Shown in pieces: positions 2,784-58,504 of a DNA stretch of 64,000 bases; the first letter of the stretch is position 1; each line of letters begins with the position of its first letter. The notes beneath the pieces are model-generated. The model was not told where the DNA came from. It made no database searches and was given only the letters and a program-made list of their open reading frames with translations. The translations under genes and the position numbers were made by a program. The stretch comes from a virus. The stretch lies in UHGV virus genome UHGV-0038492; one strand, written 5' to 3'.

Positions 2784-5081
2784 GTGGAATACAATTCTCC
2801 TTTTCGTTTATCGGTAGACGAGTATCATCGTGATATCGATATTAACGATGCTTATCGTGAGCAGGTTGCGCTATACATTCACAACGTAACCGCACAAAAA
2901 TACCCTTTGGAATTATGTCGTAAAGAAGTTGACGAGATGTTGGCACCTGGTGGTGAATTATCAACCGAATCACCGTTGTGTAAGATGTGGGTGCGTAATC
3001 AAAAAACAGGAGACCGTGAAGAGAAATACACCACCGTTGATAAACTGTTTAAAACCGTAATTGATAAACAGATTATCTCCGCACCGTCATTAACCTTTTA
3101 TATCCCAGAACACATCAAACGTTCCAAGCTATCAGAATTCACTGCCGCTAACGTAGCTAAACGTGCAGCGGTGAAAAAAGAGATGTTTGCTGCCGAAGCA
3201 GCAGGTAATAGAGTTTTACAGATTAACAAAAAGAACGAACAGAACGCAGTCAAGACACTGAACAACGGGATGTCAGGCGCATTCTCTTCTCCATACACGA
3301 TCATCTTTAACCAATCGTCTCACTCTGTATTAACGTCAACCTGCCGTACTGCAACCTCATTCGGTAACGCAGGTAACGAACGTTTATTAGGCGGTAATCG
3401 TCATTATGACACACCGTCACGTATCATCGATCATTTCTTGTCCATCGGTACGTTAACCGATTGGGATAGCTTCAAGAAATGTATGGATACGTACGAGCTT
3501 CATTACCCAACCGTAGAAGAAGTGATGGATGTGATTCATTACTCTGCGGACTTCTACTTCAAGAACGAAGAGGGGATGGAGTTTGTCGAACACTATGTAT
3601 CAAATGTTTCTCCGCTCACTCGCGCGGCATTTGTTTACATGGGTGATTTTTATCATCTTGCGAAGTACAACGATCAGTTCATGCGCGGTTTTATTACCGC
3701 GTTGATTTCTCGCGAGATGATTGATGAAGTCGAAGACTGGGATGCTGCGGAAAAAACCATCGATGGTGACATGCAGATCATCATCTCCCAGTTCCGTACT
3801 GACGTGGTACCGATGGGTAAAGCATTCAGCCACGTTAAGAAACTCGACGATAAGAAAAAGCCATTGCCGTGGGATCAGCAGGACGACTACAAGGAACTGA
3901 TTCGTTCCGCACTGTTCTTACAGAAAACCATCGGTAAGTACGCACTTTTAATTCGTAATATCCTGACCACTAAAAACTTACCGATTAACATCGCAAGAAT
4001 GCCGGATGTGGTTCGTCGGGTAGGTGTGGTTTCAGATACCGACTCTACAATGATGACTGCACAATGGTGGGCGGTTTGGTATACCGGTAAGCATTACGGC
4101 GACGAAGCAACCCGTGTATCCAACGCAATGATTTATATTGCAACGCAGCACCTTCGTCACCTGATGGCGAGTATGTCTGCGAATATCGGTGTAGCGAAAG
4201 AACGCCTGTTCTTGTACGCGATGAAGAACGAATTTAAGTTCGATTCGTTTGCATTAACAACCAAAGCAAAACACTACTTCTCACTGATTACCGGTCAGGA
4301 AGGTCAGCTGAAAAAAGATCCCGAGCTGGAAGTAAAAGGAGTGTCTTTACGTACTTCGAACATTCCACCGATTATCATGAAGGAGTTTAAGAATACCATT
4401 AAAGGACTGTGTGAAGTCGTCGCACGCGGAGACCAGATTGAAATTATTCCGTTACTGGAAAAGGTTGCGCAGATCGAACACACCATTATGGATTCTATTC
4501 GTTCGGGTAATCCGGGTTATCTGAAAACAACGAACATTAAGGAACGTAGCGCTTATAACGAGAAGGACGAGAAAAACTATCACTACCATCGAATGTACAA
4601 CGCCATCTTTGGTCCGAAGTTTGGTCATCTGGAAGAACCGCCTTACGACGCTGTAAAACTACCGGTGGTTTTAGAAAACAAAACCAAGATTAAAGAGTGG
4701 TTGGACAGCATCGAAGATCCGATTATCCGAAACGGTGCAACCGCGTGGTTTGAGGAGAACAATTTCCGTAAATACAAAACGTTGATTCTGCCAGAGCACT
4801 TAGTAGAGAACTACGGTATTCCTAAAGAATTGATCGATATTGCGGACATTCGTCGCACGGCGTTCTCCACCGTAGAACCGTACTATCACATCCTTGAATG
4901 CTTAGGTGTGTTCATGATGGATAAGAACCGTATGCGTTTACTGTCGGATTTCTACGATAAAACTGCTGAAGACGATGGGCTGTATAAAGAGCTTGCGGAA
5001 GTACAGTATGTTAAGAAATCAGAAAGGGCAGGTGAGGATGATGAGGACGAAGATGAAGAAGAAACATTCGATGAAGAGTAA
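2784..5081 (+). CDS. large hypothetical protein with acidic C-terminus; weak candidate for the C-terminal half of a split family-B DNA polymerase
   Basis: 765-aa ORF, GTG start with GAGGA 5 nt upstream; contains 'VVSDTDS' (motif-C-like), 'KTLNNGMSGAF' (motif-B-like) and 'KAKHYF' (KKRY-like), but spacing is atypical; tail 'EDDEDEDEEETFDEE'. Confidence 0.5.
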   Translation: MEYNSPFRLSVDEYHRDIDINDAYREQVALYIHNVTAQKYPLELCRKEVDEMLAPGGELSTESPLCKMWVRNQKTGDREEKYTTVDKLFKTVIDKQIISAPSLTFYIPEHIKRSKLSEFTAANVAKRAAVKKEMFAAEAAGNRVLQINKKNEQNAVKTLNNGMSGAFSSPYTIIFNQSSHSVLTSTCRTATSFGNAGNERLLGGNRHYDTPSRIIDHFLSIGTLTDWDSFKKCMDTYELHYPTVEEVMDVIHYSADFYFKNEEGMEFVEHYVSNVSPLTRAAFVYMGDFYHLAKYNDQFMRGFITALISREMIDEVEDWDAAEKTIDGDMQIIISQFRTDVVPMGKAFSHVKKLDDKKKPLPWDQQDDYKELIRSALFLQKTIGKYALLIRNILTTKNLPINIARMPDVVRRVGVVSDTDSTMMTAQWWAVWYTGKHYGDEATRVSNAMIYIATQHLRHLMASMSANIGVAKERLFLYAMKNEFKFDSFALTTKAKHYFSLITGQEGQLKKDPELEVKGVSLRTSNIPPIIMKEFKNTIKGLCEVVARGDQIEIIPLLEKVAQIEHTIMDSIRSGNPGYLKTTNIKERSAYNEKDEKNYHYHRMYNAIFGPKFGHLEEPPYDAVKLPVVLENKTKIKEWLDSIEDPIIRNGATAWFEENNFRKYKTLILPEHLVENYGIPKELIDIADIRRTAFSTVEPYYHILECLGVFMMDKNRMRLLSDFYDKTAEDDGLYKELAEVQYVKKSERAGEDDEDEDEEETFDEE

Positions 5082-6427: not shown

Positions 6428-6461
6428 GAAAAATATCTGAGAAAGATATTATCTATGTGAT
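6428..6461 (+). promoter_or_regulatory. phage promoter-like motif, copy 1
   Basis: 'aaaatatctgagaaagatattatctatgtgatgg', member of a recurring motif family. Confidence 0.45.
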
Positions 6462-9877: not shown

Positions 9878-10227
9878 AAAATTTGGCCCACTAGACGGGA
9901 AACCTCTAGTGCGTATCCCTCGAATTGCTGGGAACTCCTAAAGCTTACGATCCCGATAGGGTGGCGAAAGCCAGAAACAATTCGTAAGATAGCCTATGCT
10001 AACCAATAATGCTAAGGGTTGTGATAATGGATAACCAGCAGCGATGAAAATCGTTCAACGACTATCGAAAGGGTAAAACCGAGTAGAGTAGCTGCTTAGT
10101 TTAGCGGCGAAGTGGGGGAGACCTACGGGTAGCAATACCTACGGTTATGATATAGTCTGTGCCCATGTGAAAGCATGGGAGGGTGTCATTGCACACCTGC
10201 TCCAAAAGGAATGGAGTGGACAAACAG
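9878..10227 (+). ncRNA. group I self-splicing intron (no internal endonuclease ORF); boundaries approximate
   Basis: core elements in order: P 'gaattgctgggaa' (9922..9934), Q 'accagcagcg' (~10034), R 'gttcaacgactat' (10053..10065), S 'gatatagtc' (~10149); exon 1 ends in U, intron ends in G; downstream hairpins. Confidence 0.65.
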
Positions 10228-10467
10228 GATTTCGACGGCGACCAGTTACAGGTTAGACGTTTAGTTGATACCACGGAGATGGATTTAGCGCTGGCTTATC
10301 GTCCTGACAACGGATTTATGTCCAGCACAAACGTAGACGAAGTGTCTAGCAGCATGGTGTTACACAATGAGCTTATCAGCATGGAAAACCGTTTCTTACG
10401 CGATACCGAAGAAGATCTGGAGGCGGGTATCGCTATCGACTCAGAATTAATCTTAATGGCGGGGTAG
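10228..10467 (+). CDS. RNA polymerase beta-prime N-terminal subunit, exon 2, beginning with catalytic DFDGDQ
   Basis: 'DFDGDQLQVRRLVDTTEMDLALAYRPDNGFMSSTNV' aligns to '[32 protein letters not shown]'; no usable RBS or start codon for independent translation. Confidence 0.65.
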   Translation, partial: DFDGDQLQVRRLVDTTEMDLALAYRPDNGFMSSTNVDEVSSSMVLHNELISMENRFLRDTEEDLEAGIAIDSELILMAG

Positions 10468-10473
10468 TAAAAC

Positions 10474-32289: not shown

Positions 32290-32332
32290 ATTACCCTACT
32301 CCTCTCGGGAGTAGGGTAGCTTTTATTTTTTC
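32290..32332. terminator. bidirectional terminator between convergent genes
   Basis: 'taccctactcctctcgggagtagggta' followed by T-run; near-duplicate of the hairpin at 37655. Confidence 0.7.
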
Positions 32333-37654: not shown

Positions 37655-37700
37655 AGTACCCTACTCCCGAAAAGGAGTAGGGTAGCTTTTTATTTTTTTA
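37655..37700. terminator. bidirectional terminator between convergent genes
   Basis: 'taccctactcccgaaaaggagtagggta' followed by T-run. Confidence 0.7.
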
Positions 37701-46026: not shown

Positions 46027-47292
46027 ATGGCGAATTTCTACAAAAACAAAATTGCTCGTGAGTCTATGGAGTCTACTTCTACTGTAGTTCCAGACGGCAT
46101 CGAACTGCCAGCAGAATCTGTAGAAGGTACTCTGGCCGATATCGAGCATGACACCAAACCGATCGAAGCAATGGACGCAGACGCAGAGCTGCTGGCCGAA
46201 GACGGCGACGAAACCGATGCTCAGCTGGAAGTCCTGGACGAAGCTCAGGCTGCTGCTGACGGTGAAGGCGCTGAAGACGGCGAAGAGCCGATGGACGCTG
46301 AAGAAGACATGCCGGACGACGCTGCTAAAGCGCTGGACGTTGCTCAGGAATCCATCCGTTCTCGCTGGAACTTCGAACACCGTTCTTCTGTTGCTCACGA
46401 ATCCTACGGTTCTCGTAACCGCCGTCAGGTTGCTCGTGAATCCCTGTGGGAAGACATTAAAGCCTTCATGAAACGTATCCTTGATTGGCTGAAAGAACAG
46501 GGTCGTAAGATCAAAGATCGTTGGCTGAAATTCCACAACCAGGGTAAATCTATCCAGGCGCGTGCGAAGAAAAACGACGCAATTATCCGTAAGCTGGGCA
46601 AACAGAAGAAAGATGAAATCTCTGGTGGTTTCATTAAATCTCTGTCCATCGACGGTAAGTTCGTTGGTGACGACTCCACGAAACTGAAAGGTATTCTGAC
46701 CCAGGTTTCCAGCTTCTATAGCTCTAAAATGCCTTCTATGGCTGCTAAAGCCTCTGCCATGGTTGAAGATGTTACTAAAGGTAACGGCGCTAAGATTGAA
46801 AACCTGAAAGCCGAGTTCGGTGAACTGGCTAAACAAGATAATCTTAAGAACTTCAAGCTCGGTAACATGGCTGTTAAGTCTGAGTACGATAACGAAGGCG
46901 GTTTCTCCACTACCTTCGTTGAGTCTGAAAACACCGTTGAAACCAGCGTGAAAACTCCGTCTGTTGGCGATCTGGCTAAACTCAATGCCTTCTTCAACGA
47001 AGTGGGTAAACAGATTGAGAAGAACGTTCAGGATTATCGTAAAGTTGAAAGCGCACGTAAGTCTTTCGAAGACAGCATCGATAAGCTGCTGAAAGAAATC
47101 GACAAAGTTAAGATCGATGAAAAACCGGAACTGACCGAAAACGTGCGTCGCGCTCGTCGTTACGTTACCAGTGTTAACCAGGCTCTGTCTCTGGGTGAGA
47201 AAGTTATTGCTTCTACTCAGAAACATCTGGCTAACGGTCTGAACGGTTATATCTCAGCAGGTATTGCCGCTTACGAAAAGACTAAAGCTTAA
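46027..47292 (+). CDS. abundant protein, paralog B
   Basis: 421 aa; shared blocks 'MANF..K..ARESME', 'IRKLGKQKKDEISGGFI', 'VKTPSV', 'LNGY..AGI.AYEK.K'; 405-aa antisense open frame. Confidence 0.7.
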   Translation: MANFYKNKIARESMESTSTVVPDGIELPAESVEGTLADIEHDTKPIEAMDADAELLAEDGDETDAQLEVLDEAQAAADGEGAEDGEEPMDAEEDMPDDAAKALDVAQESIRSRWNFEHRSSVAHESYGSRNRRQVARESLWEDIKAFMKRILDWLKEQGRKIKDRWLKFHNQGKSIQARAKKNDAIIRKLGKQKKDEISGGFIKSLSIDGKFVGDDSTKLKGILTQVSSFYSSKMPSMAAKASAMVEDVTKGNGAKIENLKAEFGELAKQDNLKNFKLGNMAVKSEYDNEGGFSTTFVESENTVETSVKTPSVGDLAKLNAFFNEVGKQIEKNVQDYRKVESARKSFEDSIDKLLKEIDKVKIDEKPELTENVRRARRYVTSVNQALSLGEKVIASTQKHLANGLNGYISAGIAAYEKTKA

Positions 47293-47306
47293 CTGAACAG
47301 TTAGGC

Positions 47307-47355
47307 AAGAGAACCACCCTGTAATGGGGTGGTTCTCCCTTTTCTTTTTTTTTCG
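47307..47355 (+). terminator. rho-independent terminator
   Basis: 'gagaaccaccctgtaatggggtggttctc' followed by long T-run. Confidence 0.75.
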
Positions 47356-47359
47356 ATTA

Positions 47360-47398
47360 AAAATAATCTCAGATAGATATTACCTTAGTGAGATTACG
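47360..47398 (+). promoter_or_regulatory. phage promoter-like motif, copy 5
   Basis: 'aaaataatctcagatagatattaccttagtgagattacg'. Confidence 0.5.
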
Positions 47399-47443
47399 CT
47401 GTAATCTTTTAACGACCTGTTTATTACGTTTAGGAGAATTATC

Positions 47444-47620
47444 ATGAACCGCTTCCAATCCAAGAAAGAATTCCAGACAACCGAAGACATGGTGGTCACT
47501 GTGGAAACACCAACCACTGATGTCGTTTGCTTAGTGACACCCATCATAGCGCACAAGAGAAAAGAAGTTTCTCAGTGCCCAGAGGTTCGGGCAGTAAAAC
47601 GTTTTATTAAAGCGCTATAA
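47444..47620 (+). CDS. small protein (58 aa), below ORF-track cutoff
   Basis: RBS 'taggagaattatcATG'; sits between promoter motif and terminator. Confidence 0.5.
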   Translation: MNRFQSKKEFQTTEDMVVTVETPTTDVVCLVTPIIAHKRKEVSQCPEVRAVKRFIKAL

Positions 47621-47624
47621 TTGC

Positions 47625-47654
47625 TAAGCCCTTCGTAGAGGGCATTATTTTTTC
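47625..47654 (+). terminator. hairpin terminator
   Basis: 'gcccttcgtagagggc' followed by T-run. Confidence 0.55.
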
Positions 47655-47673
47655 GACCTTTAGGAGAATAGAA

Positions 47674-54997: not shown

Positions 54998-55040
54998 TAT
55001 CCCGTTACCTTTGTGGGTAACGGGATGTCCTTTTATTTAC
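54998..55040 (+). terminator. rho-independent terminator
   Basis: 'tcccgttacctttgtgggtaacggga' followed by T-rich tract. Confidence 0.65.
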
Positions 55041-55149
55041 TCGTAAATGCGTCTTAGACGCTGTTTTACACCTTAAGACGATTAATGGTGTTTAAAAAAT
55101 AAAAGGTCGTCAGAATGCGATACAGCGCGTTTTAGAGGGTGTTTTAATT

Positions 55150-55190
55150 AAAATATTTTCAGATATATATTACTTAGGTGAGAGAATTAC
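55150..55190 (+). promoter_or_regulatory. phage promoter-like motif, copy 6 (near-identical to copy 5)
   Basis: 'aaatattttcagatatatattacttaggtgagagaattacg'. Confidence 0.5.
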
Positions 55191-55230
55191 GTAATACTCA
55201 TTTATCGAATACCTAATTAGGAGCTATATC

Positions 55231-55374
55231 ATGATTTCTGTAAAACACAAAAAAGCTATCTTCGCTGTTGTTATCGCTGTTGTTCTGGGTTGCCTGTACC
55301 TGGATATCGACAAAGGCTACGACACTTGCATCGACAACGGTAATTCCGTTGCACAGTGCACTGGTCGTGGTTAA
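55231..55374 (+). CDS. small hydrophobic peptide (47 aa), below ORF-track cutoff
   Basis: RBS 'taggagctatatcATG'; 'MISVKHKKAIFAVVIAVVLGCLYLDIDKGYDTCIDNGNSVAQCTGRG'; optimised codons; own terminator. Confidence 0.6.
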   Translation: MISVKHKKAIFAVVIAVVLGCLYLDIDKGYDTCIDNGNSVAQCTGRG

Positions 55375-55378
55375 TGTA

Positions 55379-55410
55379 TAAGGCACCTTCGGGTGCCCTT
55401 AATTTTTTAT
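55379..55410 (+). terminator. rho-independent terminator
   Basis: 'ggcaccttcgggtgcc' followed by T-run. Confidence 0.7.
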
Positions 55411-55428
55411 CTATTGGAGTATTTTTAA

Positions 55429-56244
55429 ATGAAAACTATCAAAGACTATTTTCCGACTGGCATCAGTAGCGACCATTTCGTACCAGCGGATTCGATGGAA
55501 ATTATCAGCAAGTCCAGTAGCGGTGAGTTTGTTATTTACCTAACTAATGTAGGAGGTAGACCGAGTTTCATTCTCCTCGAGCCTAAAGAAATAAGTGTCT
55601 GTACGGTTGCTGTAAATGTTTCTTGCGGCCTTAGCTGGTTGAAGTCCAGGCTGTTACGCTTGCTCGTGGTTAATACTGACCCAGCAGTACGCTTAGAGCG
55701 ATTAAAAGCAATGAATGAAGTTATCCTGGGTTTTCTGCTACATCCTATTTACGGTAACCCTAAAGTCGCAGAAGCAATACAAAACGTACAGTTAGTAGAG
55801 TGGAGTGATATTAACTACGAGCGTGCCTCCGAATTTGTATTACAGGCAGACGACAACACCGGTGTGTTCTCACAAACGTTGGATAACGTAACGGTAACCG
55901 CGCGTGTGTTGTTTGGTTTACAACGCGTAGAGTTTGAATTGAAACACGTCTACGTGAGCAATGAGCCAGAGATGGTGGAAACGTTGATTCGTGCGTTCGC
56001 ATATCCGTTAGACGGTGAATGGGAACAGCAGATTAACGGAGCGTTGGAAGCCATGCATTTCCTGGCTCAAACGTTAAGGAAGGATGAGAAATTGAAAGGT
56101 CGTGTTTATCCAGAACACGATTTTGTTTGTGAAGAATGTGGGGCACAGTATCAAATCCGTGTTCCTTTAACCGGCCTAACATTCCCGCAAGCCAACGTGC
56201 AATGTAAGGAATGTGGCCATGTTCAATACGTAGCGATTAAATAA
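55429..56244 (+). CDS. hypothetical protein with C-terminal CxxC...CxxC zinc-ribbon-like motif
   Basis: 271 aa; 'CEECGAQYQ...CKECGH'. Confidence 0.55.
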   Translation: MKTIKDYFPTGISSDHFVPADSMEIISKSSSGEFVIYLTNVGGRPSFILLEPKEISVCTVAVNVSCGLSWLKSRLLRLLVVNTDPAVRLERLKAMNEVILGFLLHPIYGNPKVAEAIQNVQLVEWSDINYERASEFVLQADDNTGVFSQTLDNVTVTARVLFGLQRVEFELKHVYVSNEPEMVETLIRAFAYPLDGEWEQQINGALEAMHFLAQTLRKDEKLKGRVYPEHDFVCEECGAQYQIRVPLTGLTFPQANVQCKECGHVQYVAIK

Positions 56245-56248
56245 AAGC

Positions 56249-56296
56249 AACCCCTAATCCCGAAAAGGATTAGGGGTACACTTTATTTATTTTCGC
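56249..56296 (+). terminator. hairpin terminator
   Basis: 'cccctaatcccgaaaaggattagggg' followed by T-rich tract. Confidence 0.6.
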
Positions 56297-56320
56297 AATT
56301 TCAACATAGGAGAAAAGTTC

Positions 56321-56479
56321 ATGAAACATGAACAGTTGTTTCAAAGGTTAAACGAGTTGTCCGTAAAACAGCTCGAATTTCAACGAAGGGTTAGTGAAAT
56401 AGCGCAACCAACGTTAACTCAGCCCAAAGTTGCTTATCCAAGAAACACCCAGTTGATAGTTGAAAGGAGAAGTAACTGA
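56321..56479 (+). CDS. small protein (52 aa), below ORF-track cutoff
   Basis: RBS 'taggagaaaagttcATG'; followed by hairpin plus T-run. Confidence 0.45.
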   Translation: MKHEQLFQRLNELSVKQLEFQRRVSEIAQPTLTQPKVAYPRNTQLIVERRSN

Positions 56480-56486
56480 TAAAAAC

Positions 56487-56515
56487 AAGGGGGTGCTGCC
56501 ACACCCCTTTTTTAC
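56487..56515 (+). terminator. rho-independent terminator
   Basis: 'ggggtgctgccacacccc' followed by T6. Confidence 0.6.
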
Positions 56516-56601
56516 GCTTTAACTTTTCCAAAGAGAAGTTAAAGCAGTAGGGGATGACCGACATCCCCTACTGTACGGTGCCAACGCATAAAGACGTTGG
56601 C
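56516..56601 (+). other. three tandem perfect stem-loops (9-, 10- and 7-bp stems) in intergenic region; candidate structured RNA or regulatory element
   Basis: 'ctttaactt..aagttaaag', 'gtaggggatg..catcccctac', 'gccaacg..cgttggc'. Confidence 0.4.
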
Positions 56602-56633
56602 GTTTCTTACAACGTTACTAAAGGTAATGAAAA

Positions 56634-56804
56634 ATGAACGATTATCAATTACAGATGTTTAATGCGGCGATGCGTAACCGTGAAAAACAAATTCAGTTCA
56701 ACCAACGCATGGATGAATATGTTCGCCTCGGTCTTGTTGCGGCACCTAAAACATCTAATAACCAGAATATACAGCAACCCTATGTAAGGAGAACTGGCTA
56801 CTAA
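56634..56804 (+). CDS. small protein (56 aa), below ORF-track cutoff
   Basis: RBS 'aaaggtaatgaaaaATG'; followed by hairpin 'agggggtg..caccccct'. Confidence 0.45.
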   Translation: MNDYQLQMFNAAMRNREKQIQFNQRMDEYVRLGLVAAPKTSNNQNIQQPYVRRTGY

Positions 56805-56941
56805 TTAACTAATACAGGGGGTGCACTACCACCCCCTACTTGGTTCAGTAGTTGACTTTCGTTCATAATTATTAGATGTCTTGTTTTTTTTGCTTTTCAG
56901 GACGCATAAGGGGTCGTAGGGGGAGCCGAAGCTCCCCAGAC

Positions 56942-58504
56942 TCAAAAGAGTTCGTCACCCATACCGCCTGTAAAGACGTTAATCGACGATGCAGTCACTG
57001 TTTCTTCTTTATCGCAATCCCAAGGCAGAATGCCAACTTCACGGAAAGGTATTACTGTATAATGGTAAGCTTCTTTAGTATCGATAATTGTACGGTGTTT
57101 ACCACGTTGTACTTCTAAGTAACTATGTCCATTGACAACACGTTTGTTAAAATACATCTCACCGTCAGCTTCGTTATCCAAGCTGGAGCAGTTATCGTAA
57201 AGACCGCGACCTGGTAAGTTCTTACAGAAACTTGCTGGGTCTAACGCTTTTAATTTTTTGCCTTCTGGTGAGATTTGGTGTGGTGCTAACAAGAAACCAC
57301 GGTTACGTACTACCTGGATGTTTCGAGCGATACGATAAATTTCTTTAATGTCGCTACCGGCAATCCCGTTACCGTGACCTGCTTTACTGATAGTCCCGAA
57401 ATAGTCTCCGCGAATCCCAGCTACATGATAACCTCGACGCTTTAAGTCCAGTATTAAGTCGTTTAAGTAGTGTATTTTAAAATCTGAGTTTGTGTGTTTC
57501 TGAAAGATGTATTCCCAACCGTTAGCCCGCATTTTACTACAGAGGTAGTCCGACATTTTTGTGTTGTGTAAAGCTTTCTCTTCGTCGGTAGCGTTTTCAG
57601 AAGCAACCATAACCGGTGCTTCACCTTCAAAATGACCGTAGAGCGCTTGGTACGCATACGCCAAGTTAACGTCCAGTTCGTTCTCTAAACTTAAATCGAG
57701 AATAACCGGCTGCAAATCCCCTTTAACATTTTCCATTACTTTTTCGGGTGTATTGAATACCGGAATACTGATAGACAACAACAGACTAAAAAGTGATTTA
57801 CAGTTAAAAGGCAGTGCAGGCATTAACCAAAGCTCTTCGGTAATCCCTTTGTTACAACCCAGCATCTGGTTAATGGCTTTCCATCCGGTACGTAAACCGT
57901 TACCCGCTGCTTTCTTACTGATGGAGTCGAACACATGCACGAACGGTGCACGGTTATCCGTAATAAGCTCGCCTACGAGTGAGGGAATCTTATTATGAGA
58001 GCGTTCACTGAACGTAGAGAGACTATCTCTGAGGTCGTTGAGCGCCGTTTGTAAATCAACGCGCGTTTCGGTTCCGTTCAGTGCGCCTAACGTACGACCT
58101 AATTTTTGTTTCAGTTGTACGCCTTGAATAGCTTGACGTAATTGGAAGTAGTATTGTGCTACTTGACGGTTAAGATGCTCGATGCGTGCTTCTGGTTCTT
58201 CTGGAATATCATCTTCCAGGAATTTGGTAATCGTATCGTATAGAGGACGTATTTGCGTAGTGGCCAACTTCAAACGTTTCATGACGTTTGTGTGGTCGTA
58301 AGGCATACCGCCGTCTATGATGGATGTGATGATATCCTTGATTTCGACGAGGGCGGCACGTTCGTCACCTTCCTCTACGTAATCAGGAAGCTTAGCCTCT
58401 AACAGCACTTTTCTTATGACCTCATGATCCTTCTCAGGGTCGGTCAACAGACTTTCAGTGTATAGTGTGGCTAATGCGGTTATCAACATCATTTTGTTAT
58501 TCAT
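56942..58504 (-). CDS. hypothetical protein (520 aa), antisense to the surrounding plus-strand cluster
   Basis: minus-strand ORF; AAGGA upstream of ATG; hairpin 'ggggagccgaagctcccc' just beyond its stop. Confidence 0.6.
   Translation of the reverse strand: MNNKMMLITALATLYTESLLTDPEKDHEVIRKVLLEAKLPDYVEEGDERAALVEIKDIITSIIDGGMPYDHTNVMKRLKLATTQIRPLYDTITKFLEDDIPEEPEARIEHLNRQVAQYYFQLRQAIQGVQLKQKLGRTLGALNGTETRVDLQTALNDLRDSLSTFSERSHNKIPSLVGELITDNRAPFVHVFDSISKKAAGNGLRTGWKAINQMLGCNKGITEELWLMPALPFNCKSLFSLLLSISIPVFNTPEKVMENVKGDLQPVILDLSLENELDVNLAYAYQALYGHFEGEAPVMVASENATDEEKALHNTKMSDYLCSKMRANGWEYIFQKHTNSDFKIHYLNDLILDLKRRGYHVAGIRGDYFGTISKAGHGNGIAGSDIKEIYRIARNIQVVRNRGFLLAPHQISPEGKKLKALDPASFCKNLPGRGLYDNCSSLDNEADGEMYFNKRVVNGHSYLEVQRGKHRTIIDTKEAYHYTVIPFREVGILPWDCDKEETVTASSINVFTGGMGDELF

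Follow-up and report, generated by a model that had tools for sequence, protein, structure and literature searches.

A tandem array of small-gene cassettes with covariation-supported hairpin modules beside the helicase gene of an SPN3US-related jumbo phage

What kind of locus packs two very small open reading frames (ORFs) and eight perfect hairpins into about 700 bp of a phage genome? The question is raised by a 64-kb stretch of the viral genome UHGV-0038492 (hereafter the window), in which the gap at 56245-56941 separates two convergent genes, a gene for a 271-aa protein on the plus strand and a DnaB-like helicase gene on the minus strand, and holds the small ORFs A and B. The window comes from a jumbo phage of the SPN3US / Asesino / Machina group (relatives Seoulvirus, Erskinevirus and Machinavirus), and the relatives' versions of the gap are numbered here as loci L006-L036, with L001 being SPN3US. 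We propose that the gap is a hyperplastic locus, that is, a tandem array of small genes in which each gene is a cassette bounded by hairpin modules. This explanation, taken as a whole and including the roles assigned to the hairpins below, is given a probability of about 0.65. In its architecture, the small-gene cassette array with its covariation-supported hairpin modules is a variant of one already known from phage genomes.

Eight perfect hairpins of at least 7 bp lie within 56245-56941, more than in any other 700 bp of the window; when the window was shuffled 40 times with its dinucleotides preserved, the maximum per 700 bp was 2.7 on average and never exceeded five. The segment between the ORFs, 56480-56633, has a predicted RNA fold of -65.7 kcal/mol (z = -7.8) on the plus strand and of -62.3 kcal/mol (z = -7.3) on the minus strand, and none of 200 shuffles folded as well. 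An earlier description made from the letters of this DNA (the sequence-only reading) had called the density of structure here unusual, and the shuffles bear this out. It had also reported two small ORFs with ribosome-binding sites (RBS), each followed by a similar hairpin. Both ORFs are present, with AGGAG 8 nt upstream of ORF A and AAAGG in front of ORF B, and so are the two post-stop hairpins, T1 and T2. The three stem-loops that it placed between the ORFs exist as well, but the stem lengths it gave are too short for two of them, as H2 has 13 pairs including one U.G and H3 has 12. T0, H5 and h are additional to the five hairpins that it listed (Table 1). A search for direct repeats within the gap found none, and repetition there is confined to the hairpin stems and to the paralogy of the proteins.

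Table 1. Positions of the features in and beside the gap, in window coordinates.
Feature	Position	Strand	Description
271-aa gene (upstream flank)	55429..56244	+	SPN3US gp70 (SPN3US_0070) homologue by synteny
T0	56250..56277	both	11-bp GC-rich hairpin, 5 nt past the stop of the 271-aa gene; T-rich tails on both strands
AT-rich tail	56282..56298	+	TTTATTTATTTTCGCAA; conserved; single copy in window
Small gene A	56321..56479	+	52 aa; PHROG 18219 family paralogue; RBS AGGAG
T1	56487..56510, T run to 56513	+	AAGGGGGTG-CTGCCA-CACCCCTTT; 8 nt past the ORF A stop
H2	56516..56545	+	AT-rich palindrome GCTTTAACTTTTC-CAAA-GAGAAGTTAAAGC; 10 perfect pairs, 13 counting one U.G
H3	56545..56573	both	12 perfect pairs; abuts H2
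H4	56580..56601, tail to 56608	+	7 bp, GCCAACG/CGTTGGC, then GTTTCTT; ORF B leader
H5	56613..56629	+	Weak hairpin; ORF B Shine-Dalgarno AAAGG in or beside the loop
Small gene B	56634..56804	+	56 aa; PHROG 18219 family paralogue; RBS AAAGG
T2	56816..56837	both	8 bp, AGGGGGTG/CACCCCCT; 11 nt past the ORF B stop; plus-strand T tail poor
Conserved non-coding block	56884..56941	-	T run 56884-56891, GACGCATAA 56901-56909, hairpin h
h	56920..56937	-	7 bp, 4 nt past the helicase stop
DnaB-like replicative helicase (downstream flank)	56942..58504	-	520 aa; PF20307

ORFs A and B are real genes and paralogues of one family. Their proteins share weak similarity (32% over 37 residues), and both align with small coding sequences annotated at the same position, between the gp70 homologue and the helicase gene, in SPN3US (gp71 and gp72, 48 aa each), Huxley, pEa_SNUABM_29, pSal-SNUABM-04 and others. 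When 5.8 billion proteins were searched with a profile, 49 relatives came back, and all those with a named source were from SPN3US-like phages or enterobacterial assemblies, on contigs of up to ~250 kb; the search links both window ORFs to the family (E 1e-13 to 1e-16 for near-identical proteins), as the alignments also do. PHROG 18219, whose function is unknown, is matched by five of the six family members in the alignment (best E 2.7e-30); ORF A alone gives E = 0.11, and nothing significant was found for the small proteins in Pfam, NCBIfam or the PDB sequences. For diverged orthologue pairs of all five paralogue types tested, the ratio of nonsynonymous to synonymous changes (pN/pS) is 0.13-0.31 (0.16-0.30 between orthologues of A, 0.13-0.24 between diverged pairs of B), so that the amino-acid sequence is seen to be under purifying selection. 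An AlphaFold2 model of protein B, built on the family alignment, contains one helix (residues 3-31) and a low-confidence remainder without secondary structure (mean predicted local distance difference test, pLDDT, 77). The tail is basic in sequence, and the fold predicted for the family is an amphipathic helix followed by a basic tail. Intact members may stand unannotated, as is the case for ORF A in NZ_CP173450.1 (L035) and for a 51-aa type-F gene at the same position in L036. Literature searches gave no SPN3US transcriptome and no mention of gp71/gp72. Every small gene also contains a Shine-Dalgarno-like AGGAG(A/G) 10-25 nt before its stop (56465-56471 and 56789-56795 in the window; 3638-3646 and 3897-3905 in L001), which codes a conserved GLGG motif in the other genera and RR codons in the window clade.

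Through a comparison of the relatives, it was found that the number and the kind of these genes vary widely. Asesino and phiEaH2 have no copy, with gaps of 122 and 110 nt; the Machina-type phages and pEa29 (Huxley, pEa29, pSal04, pEa6 and pEa43) have one copy, and SPN3US has two. In the clade of the window, sampled with 16 distinct gap versions and two more from 'plasmid' records, each gap holds between one and three genes, which belong to at least six paralogue types (A-F) in all, plus remnants. The window has the array A-B, as do L017 and L035, and L036 has F-B. The arrays A-C-B, F-D-C and A-E-C are found in L014, L022 and L030, respectively. In L011 A is deleted in front of B, and in L008 A is followed by a truncated C. 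A remnant of C lies between D and B in L015 (A-D-(C remnant)-B), C stands between remnants of D and E in L006 and L016 ((D remnant)-C-(E remnant)-B), and L018 has (C remnant)-E-B.

Some of the junctions are sharp enough to be read base by base. In L011, ORF A has been removed exactly between two AGGAGAA repeats, the first of them its RBS, the second formed by codons close to its stop. From T0 through ORF A a single base separates the window from L017; identity then drops abruptly, starting just before T1. In L015 and L008, the truncated genes are joined at other points, inside ORFs. Cassette number and type vary among genomes that are otherwise near-identical, and breakpoints are found at or beside hairpin modules. 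A recombination hotspot had been one of the suggestions of the sequence-only reading, with a comparison of related genomes named among the ways to check it. That comparison supports the suggestion, through the variable arrays with zero to three genes and their remnants, the deletion of ORF A at a microhomology in L011, and the breakpoint between the window and L017.

Arrays of this kind bring integrons to mind, and one may ask whether the hairpins are sites of a site-specific recombination that recognises folded, attC-like hairpins. As in integron cassette arrays, small genes are separated here by imperfect palindromes whose structure is kept while their sequence varies, and cassettes are shuffled between near-identical genomes. 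The R''/R' cores of attC sites are RYYYAAC/GTTRRRY, and the ends of H2, GCTTTAAC...GTTAAAGC, come close to them. However, all cassettes of the present locus are paralogous rather than unrelated genes, and its palindromes are much shorter, with the 30 nt of H2 being about half the shortest attC length; we also know of no integrase in this virulent phage group, for which no search was made. The integron-like reading is rejected, and we hold it to be highly improbable, because the junctions are scattered (before T1 in the window and L017, at the AGGAGAA repeats in L011, inside ORFs in L008 and L015) and not fixed in the R' core, as site-specific exchange would have them.

The cassettes share a common order, namely a GC-rich post-stop hairpin of the T1 type (GGGGTG-loop-CACCCC), H2, H3, an H4 that is specific for the gene type, the RBS, the ORF and again a post-stop hairpin. 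The manner of conservation differs from hairpin to hairpin. At the T0 position every relative has a hairpin, with a different stem sequence in the other genera. The stem of T1, which in the window consists of GGGGTG/CACCCC plus one G.U pair and two A-T pairs and is followed by the T run, is conserved in the relatives, and its loop is hypervariable and at times inverted; the loop of T2 is hypervariable as well. H2 is conserved in sequence, with a variable loop, one conserved U.G, and one pair that is found as A-U, U-A, G.U or A.A. H3 has a new sequence in nearly every copy and always keeps its pairing. Among 18 distinct copies of H2+H3, 8 of the 11 H3 pairs have changed on both sides and 100% of the cells are paired; the covariation score is 0.329, compared with 0.116 for shuffles and no more than 0.081 after sliding the partners. 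The H4 of the B-type leader has two compensated pairs relative to L006/L017 (GTCAACA/TGTTGAC), with a U.G intermediate in NZ_CP134650.1, and the C-, D- and E-type leaders have their own H4 each, at the same position. The G.U pair of H5 in the window is A-U in L006/L017, and H5 is predicted in both the minimum-free-energy and the centroid folds. In hairpin h, which has a UUCG loop on the helicase strand, four of the seven pairs are compensated and 100% pairing is kept across genera. The sequence-only reading had counted a lack of hairpin conservation among the grounds against its case; H3, H4 and h do keep their pairing, through compensatory changes.

The loops change in a peculiar way. On identical stems in different genomes, loops that are exact reverse complements of each other were found in at least nine pairs from five hairpin families (T0, T1, T2, H3 and H4c). 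They are CGAAAA/TTTTCG in T0, inverted in three relatives; CTGTCA/TGACAG in T1; GTAGCA/TGCTAC, GTGACAA/TTGTCAC and CGGCGA/TCGCCG in T2, one of the three between L035 and L017; CTACAA/TTGTAG, TATAGG/CCTATA and TTTCGC/GCGAAA in H3; and TTTC/GAAA in H4c. In the same genomes, two terminator hairpins just outside the gap (54999-55026 and 55382-55397) show no inversions and point changes at most. Small as the sample is, it suggests that palindromes at this locus are actively changing at the level of DNA. A comparable phenomenon is known from plastid non-coding DNA, in which close relatives are separated by small inversions that put the exact reverse complement of a hairpin loop on an unaltered stem. 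The pattern here is the same, but it occurs in terminator-like hairpins of a phage and is concentrated in one 700-bp locus.

One may also suppose that the hairpins are functionless, being either chance palindromes or by-products of DNA template switching. The exact loop inversions show that palindrome dynamics in the DNA operate here, and template switching by itself can keep palindromes perfect. Nevertheless, the hairpin density is far beyond that of shuffles, the hairpin positions are kept across genera despite wholly different stems, and the placement right after stops and in leaders is consistent. We give very little credence to the idea of hairpins without function.

H2 deserves separate treatment, being locus-specific but old. 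Exact-pattern scans found it only at this locus in viral contigs of 220-225 kb and in contigs from metagenomes that belong to the same clade, and in none of 185,579 representative bacterial genomes. With a covariance model built on H2+H3, the window was matched only at 56516-56576 (plus strand, 79 bits) and at the mirror image made of H2+T1 (minus strand, 38 bits). In five relatives of other genera, the best matches of the model, individually weak (15.5-18.5 bits, E = 0.06-0.3), were at the syntenic spot upstream of the small gene, which is occupied by the AT-rich palindrome TTTATTTTC-loop-GAAAATAAA together with a GC hairpin; nothing was matched in the two phages that have no small gene. Since matches occur at the small-gene sites and none where the genes are absent, the twin element travels with the gene family. 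The full palindrome is conserved in SPN3US, Huxley, pEa29, pSal04, pEa6 and pEa43, and the AT-rich tail behind T0 in the window equals its left half as it precedes the first small gene in the other genera. Searches elsewhere in the window for the palindrome of the other genera and for GACGCATAA of the conserved block found no copies beyond chance.

Could H2 be a promoter or an operator, read by a phage RNA polymerase or a regulator? Each cassette would then be made of a terminator, a promoter, a 5' hairpin and a gene, and would be a true functional analogue of the PeSL (promoter-early stem-loop) cassettes of T4-type phages discussed below. Between T1 and the RBS of ORF B nothing but H2 is conserved in sequence, the AT-rich palindrome with its GC hairpin stands before the small gene in every genus having one and is absent otherwise, and palindromes are typical binding sites of dimeric proteins. 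Moreover, the strong T run of T1 in the window implies that ORF B may need a start site of its own. However, a polymerase promoter should recur, and H2 occurs nowhere else in the 220-225 kb genomes or in the window. It is unlike the recurrent early-promoter-like motif described next and unlike a sigma-70 promoter, and ORF A is preceded by half a palindrome only. In addition, the non-virion RNA polymerases of relatives are known to use short motifs as promoters, namely TATG in phiKZ and AACA-N6-TA/G in AR9 (PMC5312081). On balance we consider a promoter or operator role of H2 unlikely.

The early-promoter-like motif of this phage is the AT-rich sequence CAGATAGATATTAYC, with 12 copies in the window against 2.1 expected. 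Plus-strand copies lie at 6439, 6519, 14928, 16339, 20123, 47370, 55160 and 61408. The motif is mostly intergenic, upstream of plus-strand genes and often right after a terminator hairpin, and it resembles the extended, AT-rich early promoters for the virion RNA polymerase that phiKZ-like phages typically have.

For the preferred explanation, a hyperplastic array of hairpin-bounded cassettes, we propose the following roles of the hairpins. T0, T1 and T2, GC-rich stem-loops placed soon after stops as h is on the other strand (Table 1), may be intrinsic terminators or protectors of 3' ends. T1-H2-H3 would be a mirror-symmetric insulator with two GC hairpins back to back, in which the AT-rich H2 spacer would supply the U-rich tail for T1 on the plus strand and for H3 on the minus strand, and which would block transcription that reaches a cassette from the left or the right of the convergent junction. 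The most economical reading of this module is a pair of terminators, placed back to back, with the AT-rich palindrome made up of their tails. A simple terminator scan picks out T0 (both strands) as well as T1 and H3 (minus strand); T1 of the window has a U tract on both strands, H4 a weak one, and the flanks of H2 (GCTTTAACTTTTC) resemble other terminator tails of the window, such as GCTTTTATTTTTTC. In the leader of ORF B, the expression of this gene may be tuned by H4, which has a U-rich tail, and by H5, at the Shine-Dalgarno sequence. An attenuator, one of the possibilities raised by the sequence-only reading, is a plausible role for H4, to judge from the position of its U-rich tail within the ORF B leader. 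The repeated GGGGTG/CACCCC stems and the 30-nt H2 would offer homology for the duplication, deletion and exchange of cassettes, following the logic of PeSL regions. In 201phi2-1, a related chimallivirus, 132 terminators have been mapped, 15 of them bidirectional, and terminators also lie inside 5' untranslated regions (UTRs) (PMC11512511). Together with the RNAs derived from 5' UTRs in that phage, they provide a precedent for the proposed roles.

Several observations weigh against this explanation. T2 and most of the relatives' T1 copies are without a clean plus-strand U tract, and H3 has no U tract on the plus strand. A scan of the gap found no sigma-70-like site, so that no promoter of ORF B is recognised, and the early-promoter-like motif has no copy in the gap; ORF B must therefore be expressed by read-through or from a promoter that was not recognised. 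Where a single pair departs from Watson-Crick pairing, it is mostly G.U on the plus strand (14 versus 5 distinct sequences), a bias that fits, weakly, a function of the plus-strand RNA over a minus-strand terminator role for H3. The palindrome of H2 is better than two U-rich tails need, with one fully compensated pair and a conserved U.G, which hints that the H2 hairpin itself is functional. Finally, every functional role of a hairpin given above is one that we infer.

The wobble pairs lead to a further alternative, in which H2-H3-H4 form a structured RNA element. It would be either a small RNA made from the 5' UTR when transcription terminates early at H4, or a leader to which a protein, perhaps the small protein itself, binds and so controls translation of the downstream cassette gene. 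The predicted RNA fold of 56480-56633 is very stable on the plus strand (z = -7.8). The wobbles are mostly plus-strand G.U (the conserved U.G of H2, the G.U of H5 and the U.G of H4 in NZ_CP134650.1), GUUUCUU follows right after H4, and the sequence of H2 is conserved while the adjoining H3 varies freely. Besides, 8 of 11 small RNAs of 201phi2-1 arise by premature termination in 5' UTRs (PMC11512511). On the other hand, T1-H2-H3 gives almost one and the same reading on either strand, which one would expect of a bidirectional insulator rather than of a one-strand RNA. Cassettes of L008, L015 and L022 are without H2, having an H3-type hairpin directly after the stop, and H4 differs for each paralogue type. 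No Rfam family matched in a scan of 55000-58000 at a permissive threshold, the sole match being a 17-bit fragment of CrcZ (gathering score 95; E = 0.098) on hairpin h, which was judged meaningless. We regard the structured RNA element as possible but doubtful. The free-standing structured non-coding RNA gene that the sequence-only reading had also put forward finds no support, given the lack of an Rfam match and the position of the hairpins in mRNA trailers and leaders between genes under purifying selection.

A more ambitious alternative takes H2+H3 as a dedicated cis element whose folded structure is recognised by a phage factor, possibly the small basic helical protein that it precedes, with this recognition controlling the expression of the cassettes and driving both their shuffling and the loop inversions. 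We regard such an element as improbable. If it did exist, it would be a self-contained diversifying module in nucleus-forming jumbo phages.

How does the hyperplastic array compare with known systems? PeSL cassettes are terminator-plus-promoter motifs which flank small dispensable ORFs and mediate modular shuffling, giving the hyperplastic regions of T4-type phages (Arbiol et al. 2010, PMC2839356; Comeau et al. 2014, PMC4122927). In both cases GC-rich stem-loop motifs flank small dispensable ORFs, relatives differ by the insertion, deletion or replacement of ORFs, exchange takes place at or beside the repeated motifs, and the stem-loops are thought to insulate neighbouring genes. In contrast, PeSLs contain a sigma-70-like promoter and the present modules contain none, chimalliviruses using their own RNA polymerases; PeSLs occupy ~50 sites per genome, compared with one locus here; and PeSLs flank unrelated ORFans, compared with paralogues of one family here. 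The module is also of a different make, a triple hairpin (T1-H2-H3) plus gene-specific leader hairpins. The locus behaves like a PeSL region but is not a member of the PeSL class, as two of the defining features fail.

The terminators of 201phi2-1 and phiKZ are similar in that GC-rich stem-loops follow genes, some of them bidirectional, that some lie in leaders and give short RNAs derived from the 5' UTR, and that stem motifs recur within a genome (PMC11512511). Those terminators were mapped experimentally, whereas the hairpins described here are read from sequence alone; several hairpins of the gap are without a U tract, and up to four follow one another in a stretch of 125 nt. Enterobacterial intergenic regions contain palindromic mosaics next to gene 3' ends, known as repetitive extragenic palindromes (REPs) and bacterial interspersed mosaic elements (BIMEs), which stabilise the upstream mRNA and promote rearrangements. 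REPs exist in hundreds of dispersed copies and are mobilised by RAYT transposases. A palindromic mosaic at gene 3' ends is common to both, but the present modules are confined to one phage locus.

The gap sits in a conserved neighbourhood. DNA identity to SPN3US-, Asesino- and Machina-type phages is ~71-74% across conserved genes, and the gene order is as in those relatives, with a virion protein, the gp70 homologue, the helicase, a 174-aa gene and the phiKZ-type major capsid protein. The GenBank phage set holds no close relative of the window. Near-identical sequences were found in metagenomes and in two complete bacterial assemblies, where they are circular 'plasmids': NZ_CP173450.1 from E. 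coli 98232 (221,873 bp) and NZ_CP134650.1 from Enterobacter ludwigii 51A:C (222,441 bp), which provide loci L035 and L036 and are 94-96% identical over the 2 kb compared (window 55400-57400). Both records were deposited as circular, non-mobilizable 'plasmids' from clinical and wildlife isolates, which suggests either a carrier state or phage DNA co-assembled with that of the host.

Upstream of the gap, the 271-aa protein has a C-terminal CxxC...CxxC zinc ribbon, with weak matches to zinc ribbons; its SPN3US counterpart, gp70, is reported to be an essential non-virion protein (PMC5105663). In L016 and L018 this protein is just 68% identical to that of the window, and yet T0 and the AT-rich tail behind it are nearly identical, which indicates another mosaic boundary at the 3' end of that gene. 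Just before the 271-aa gene, a hydrophobic ORF of 47 aa (55231-55374; PHROG 8574, function unknown) forms a mini-unit of its own, with an early-promoter-like motif in front (55160-55174) and a UUCG-loop terminator behind (55382-55397). Elsewhere in the window, the terminator hairpins at the convergent junctions 32292-32318 and 37657-37684 have a common 11-bp stem, TACCCTACTCC/GGAGTAGGGTA, and this stem (CCCTACTCC) forms T0 in the Erwinia phages Asesino and phiEaH2. This suggests a terminator motif that is conserved in sequence, as reported for phiKZ and 201phi2-1. Two gaps of ~450 nt, 10010-10473 and 47227-47673, are without an ORF of at least 100 aa, and the former has no obvious terminator or promoter motif. 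A tRNA/tmRNA scan of the window found none.

On the helicase side, the gap ends in a block of ~60 nt that is conserved in DNA across genera, including Asesino and phiEaH2, which have no small genes, and BLAST matches to other genera extend beyond the helicase stop into it. What follows hairpin h on the helicase strand is an A run instead of a U run, and h is therefore no canonical terminator. The minus-strand reading of GACGCATAA is TTATGCGTC, which contains the TATG of phiKZ late promoters. A stem GGCAG...CTGCC around GACGCATAA, present in SPN3US and Machina-type phages, is not claimed here, as it is not conserved in the window clade or in Asesino.

What, then, does the locus tell about these phages? 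It provides a compact case in which chimalli-type jumbo phages, without host sigma-70 promoters, build hyperplastic loci from repeated regulatory hairpins, in the way that T4-type phages do with PeSLs. Two small ORFs that are poorly annotated or not annotated turn out to be real genes of a quickly diversifying family, a pattern often seen in genes for host interaction or anti-defence. The covariation-supported hairpins H2-H5 and h, together with the two isolates that carry the phage as a 'plasmid', are candidates for experiments, and the dynamics of palindromes in phage DNA have a marker in the exact inversions of the loops.

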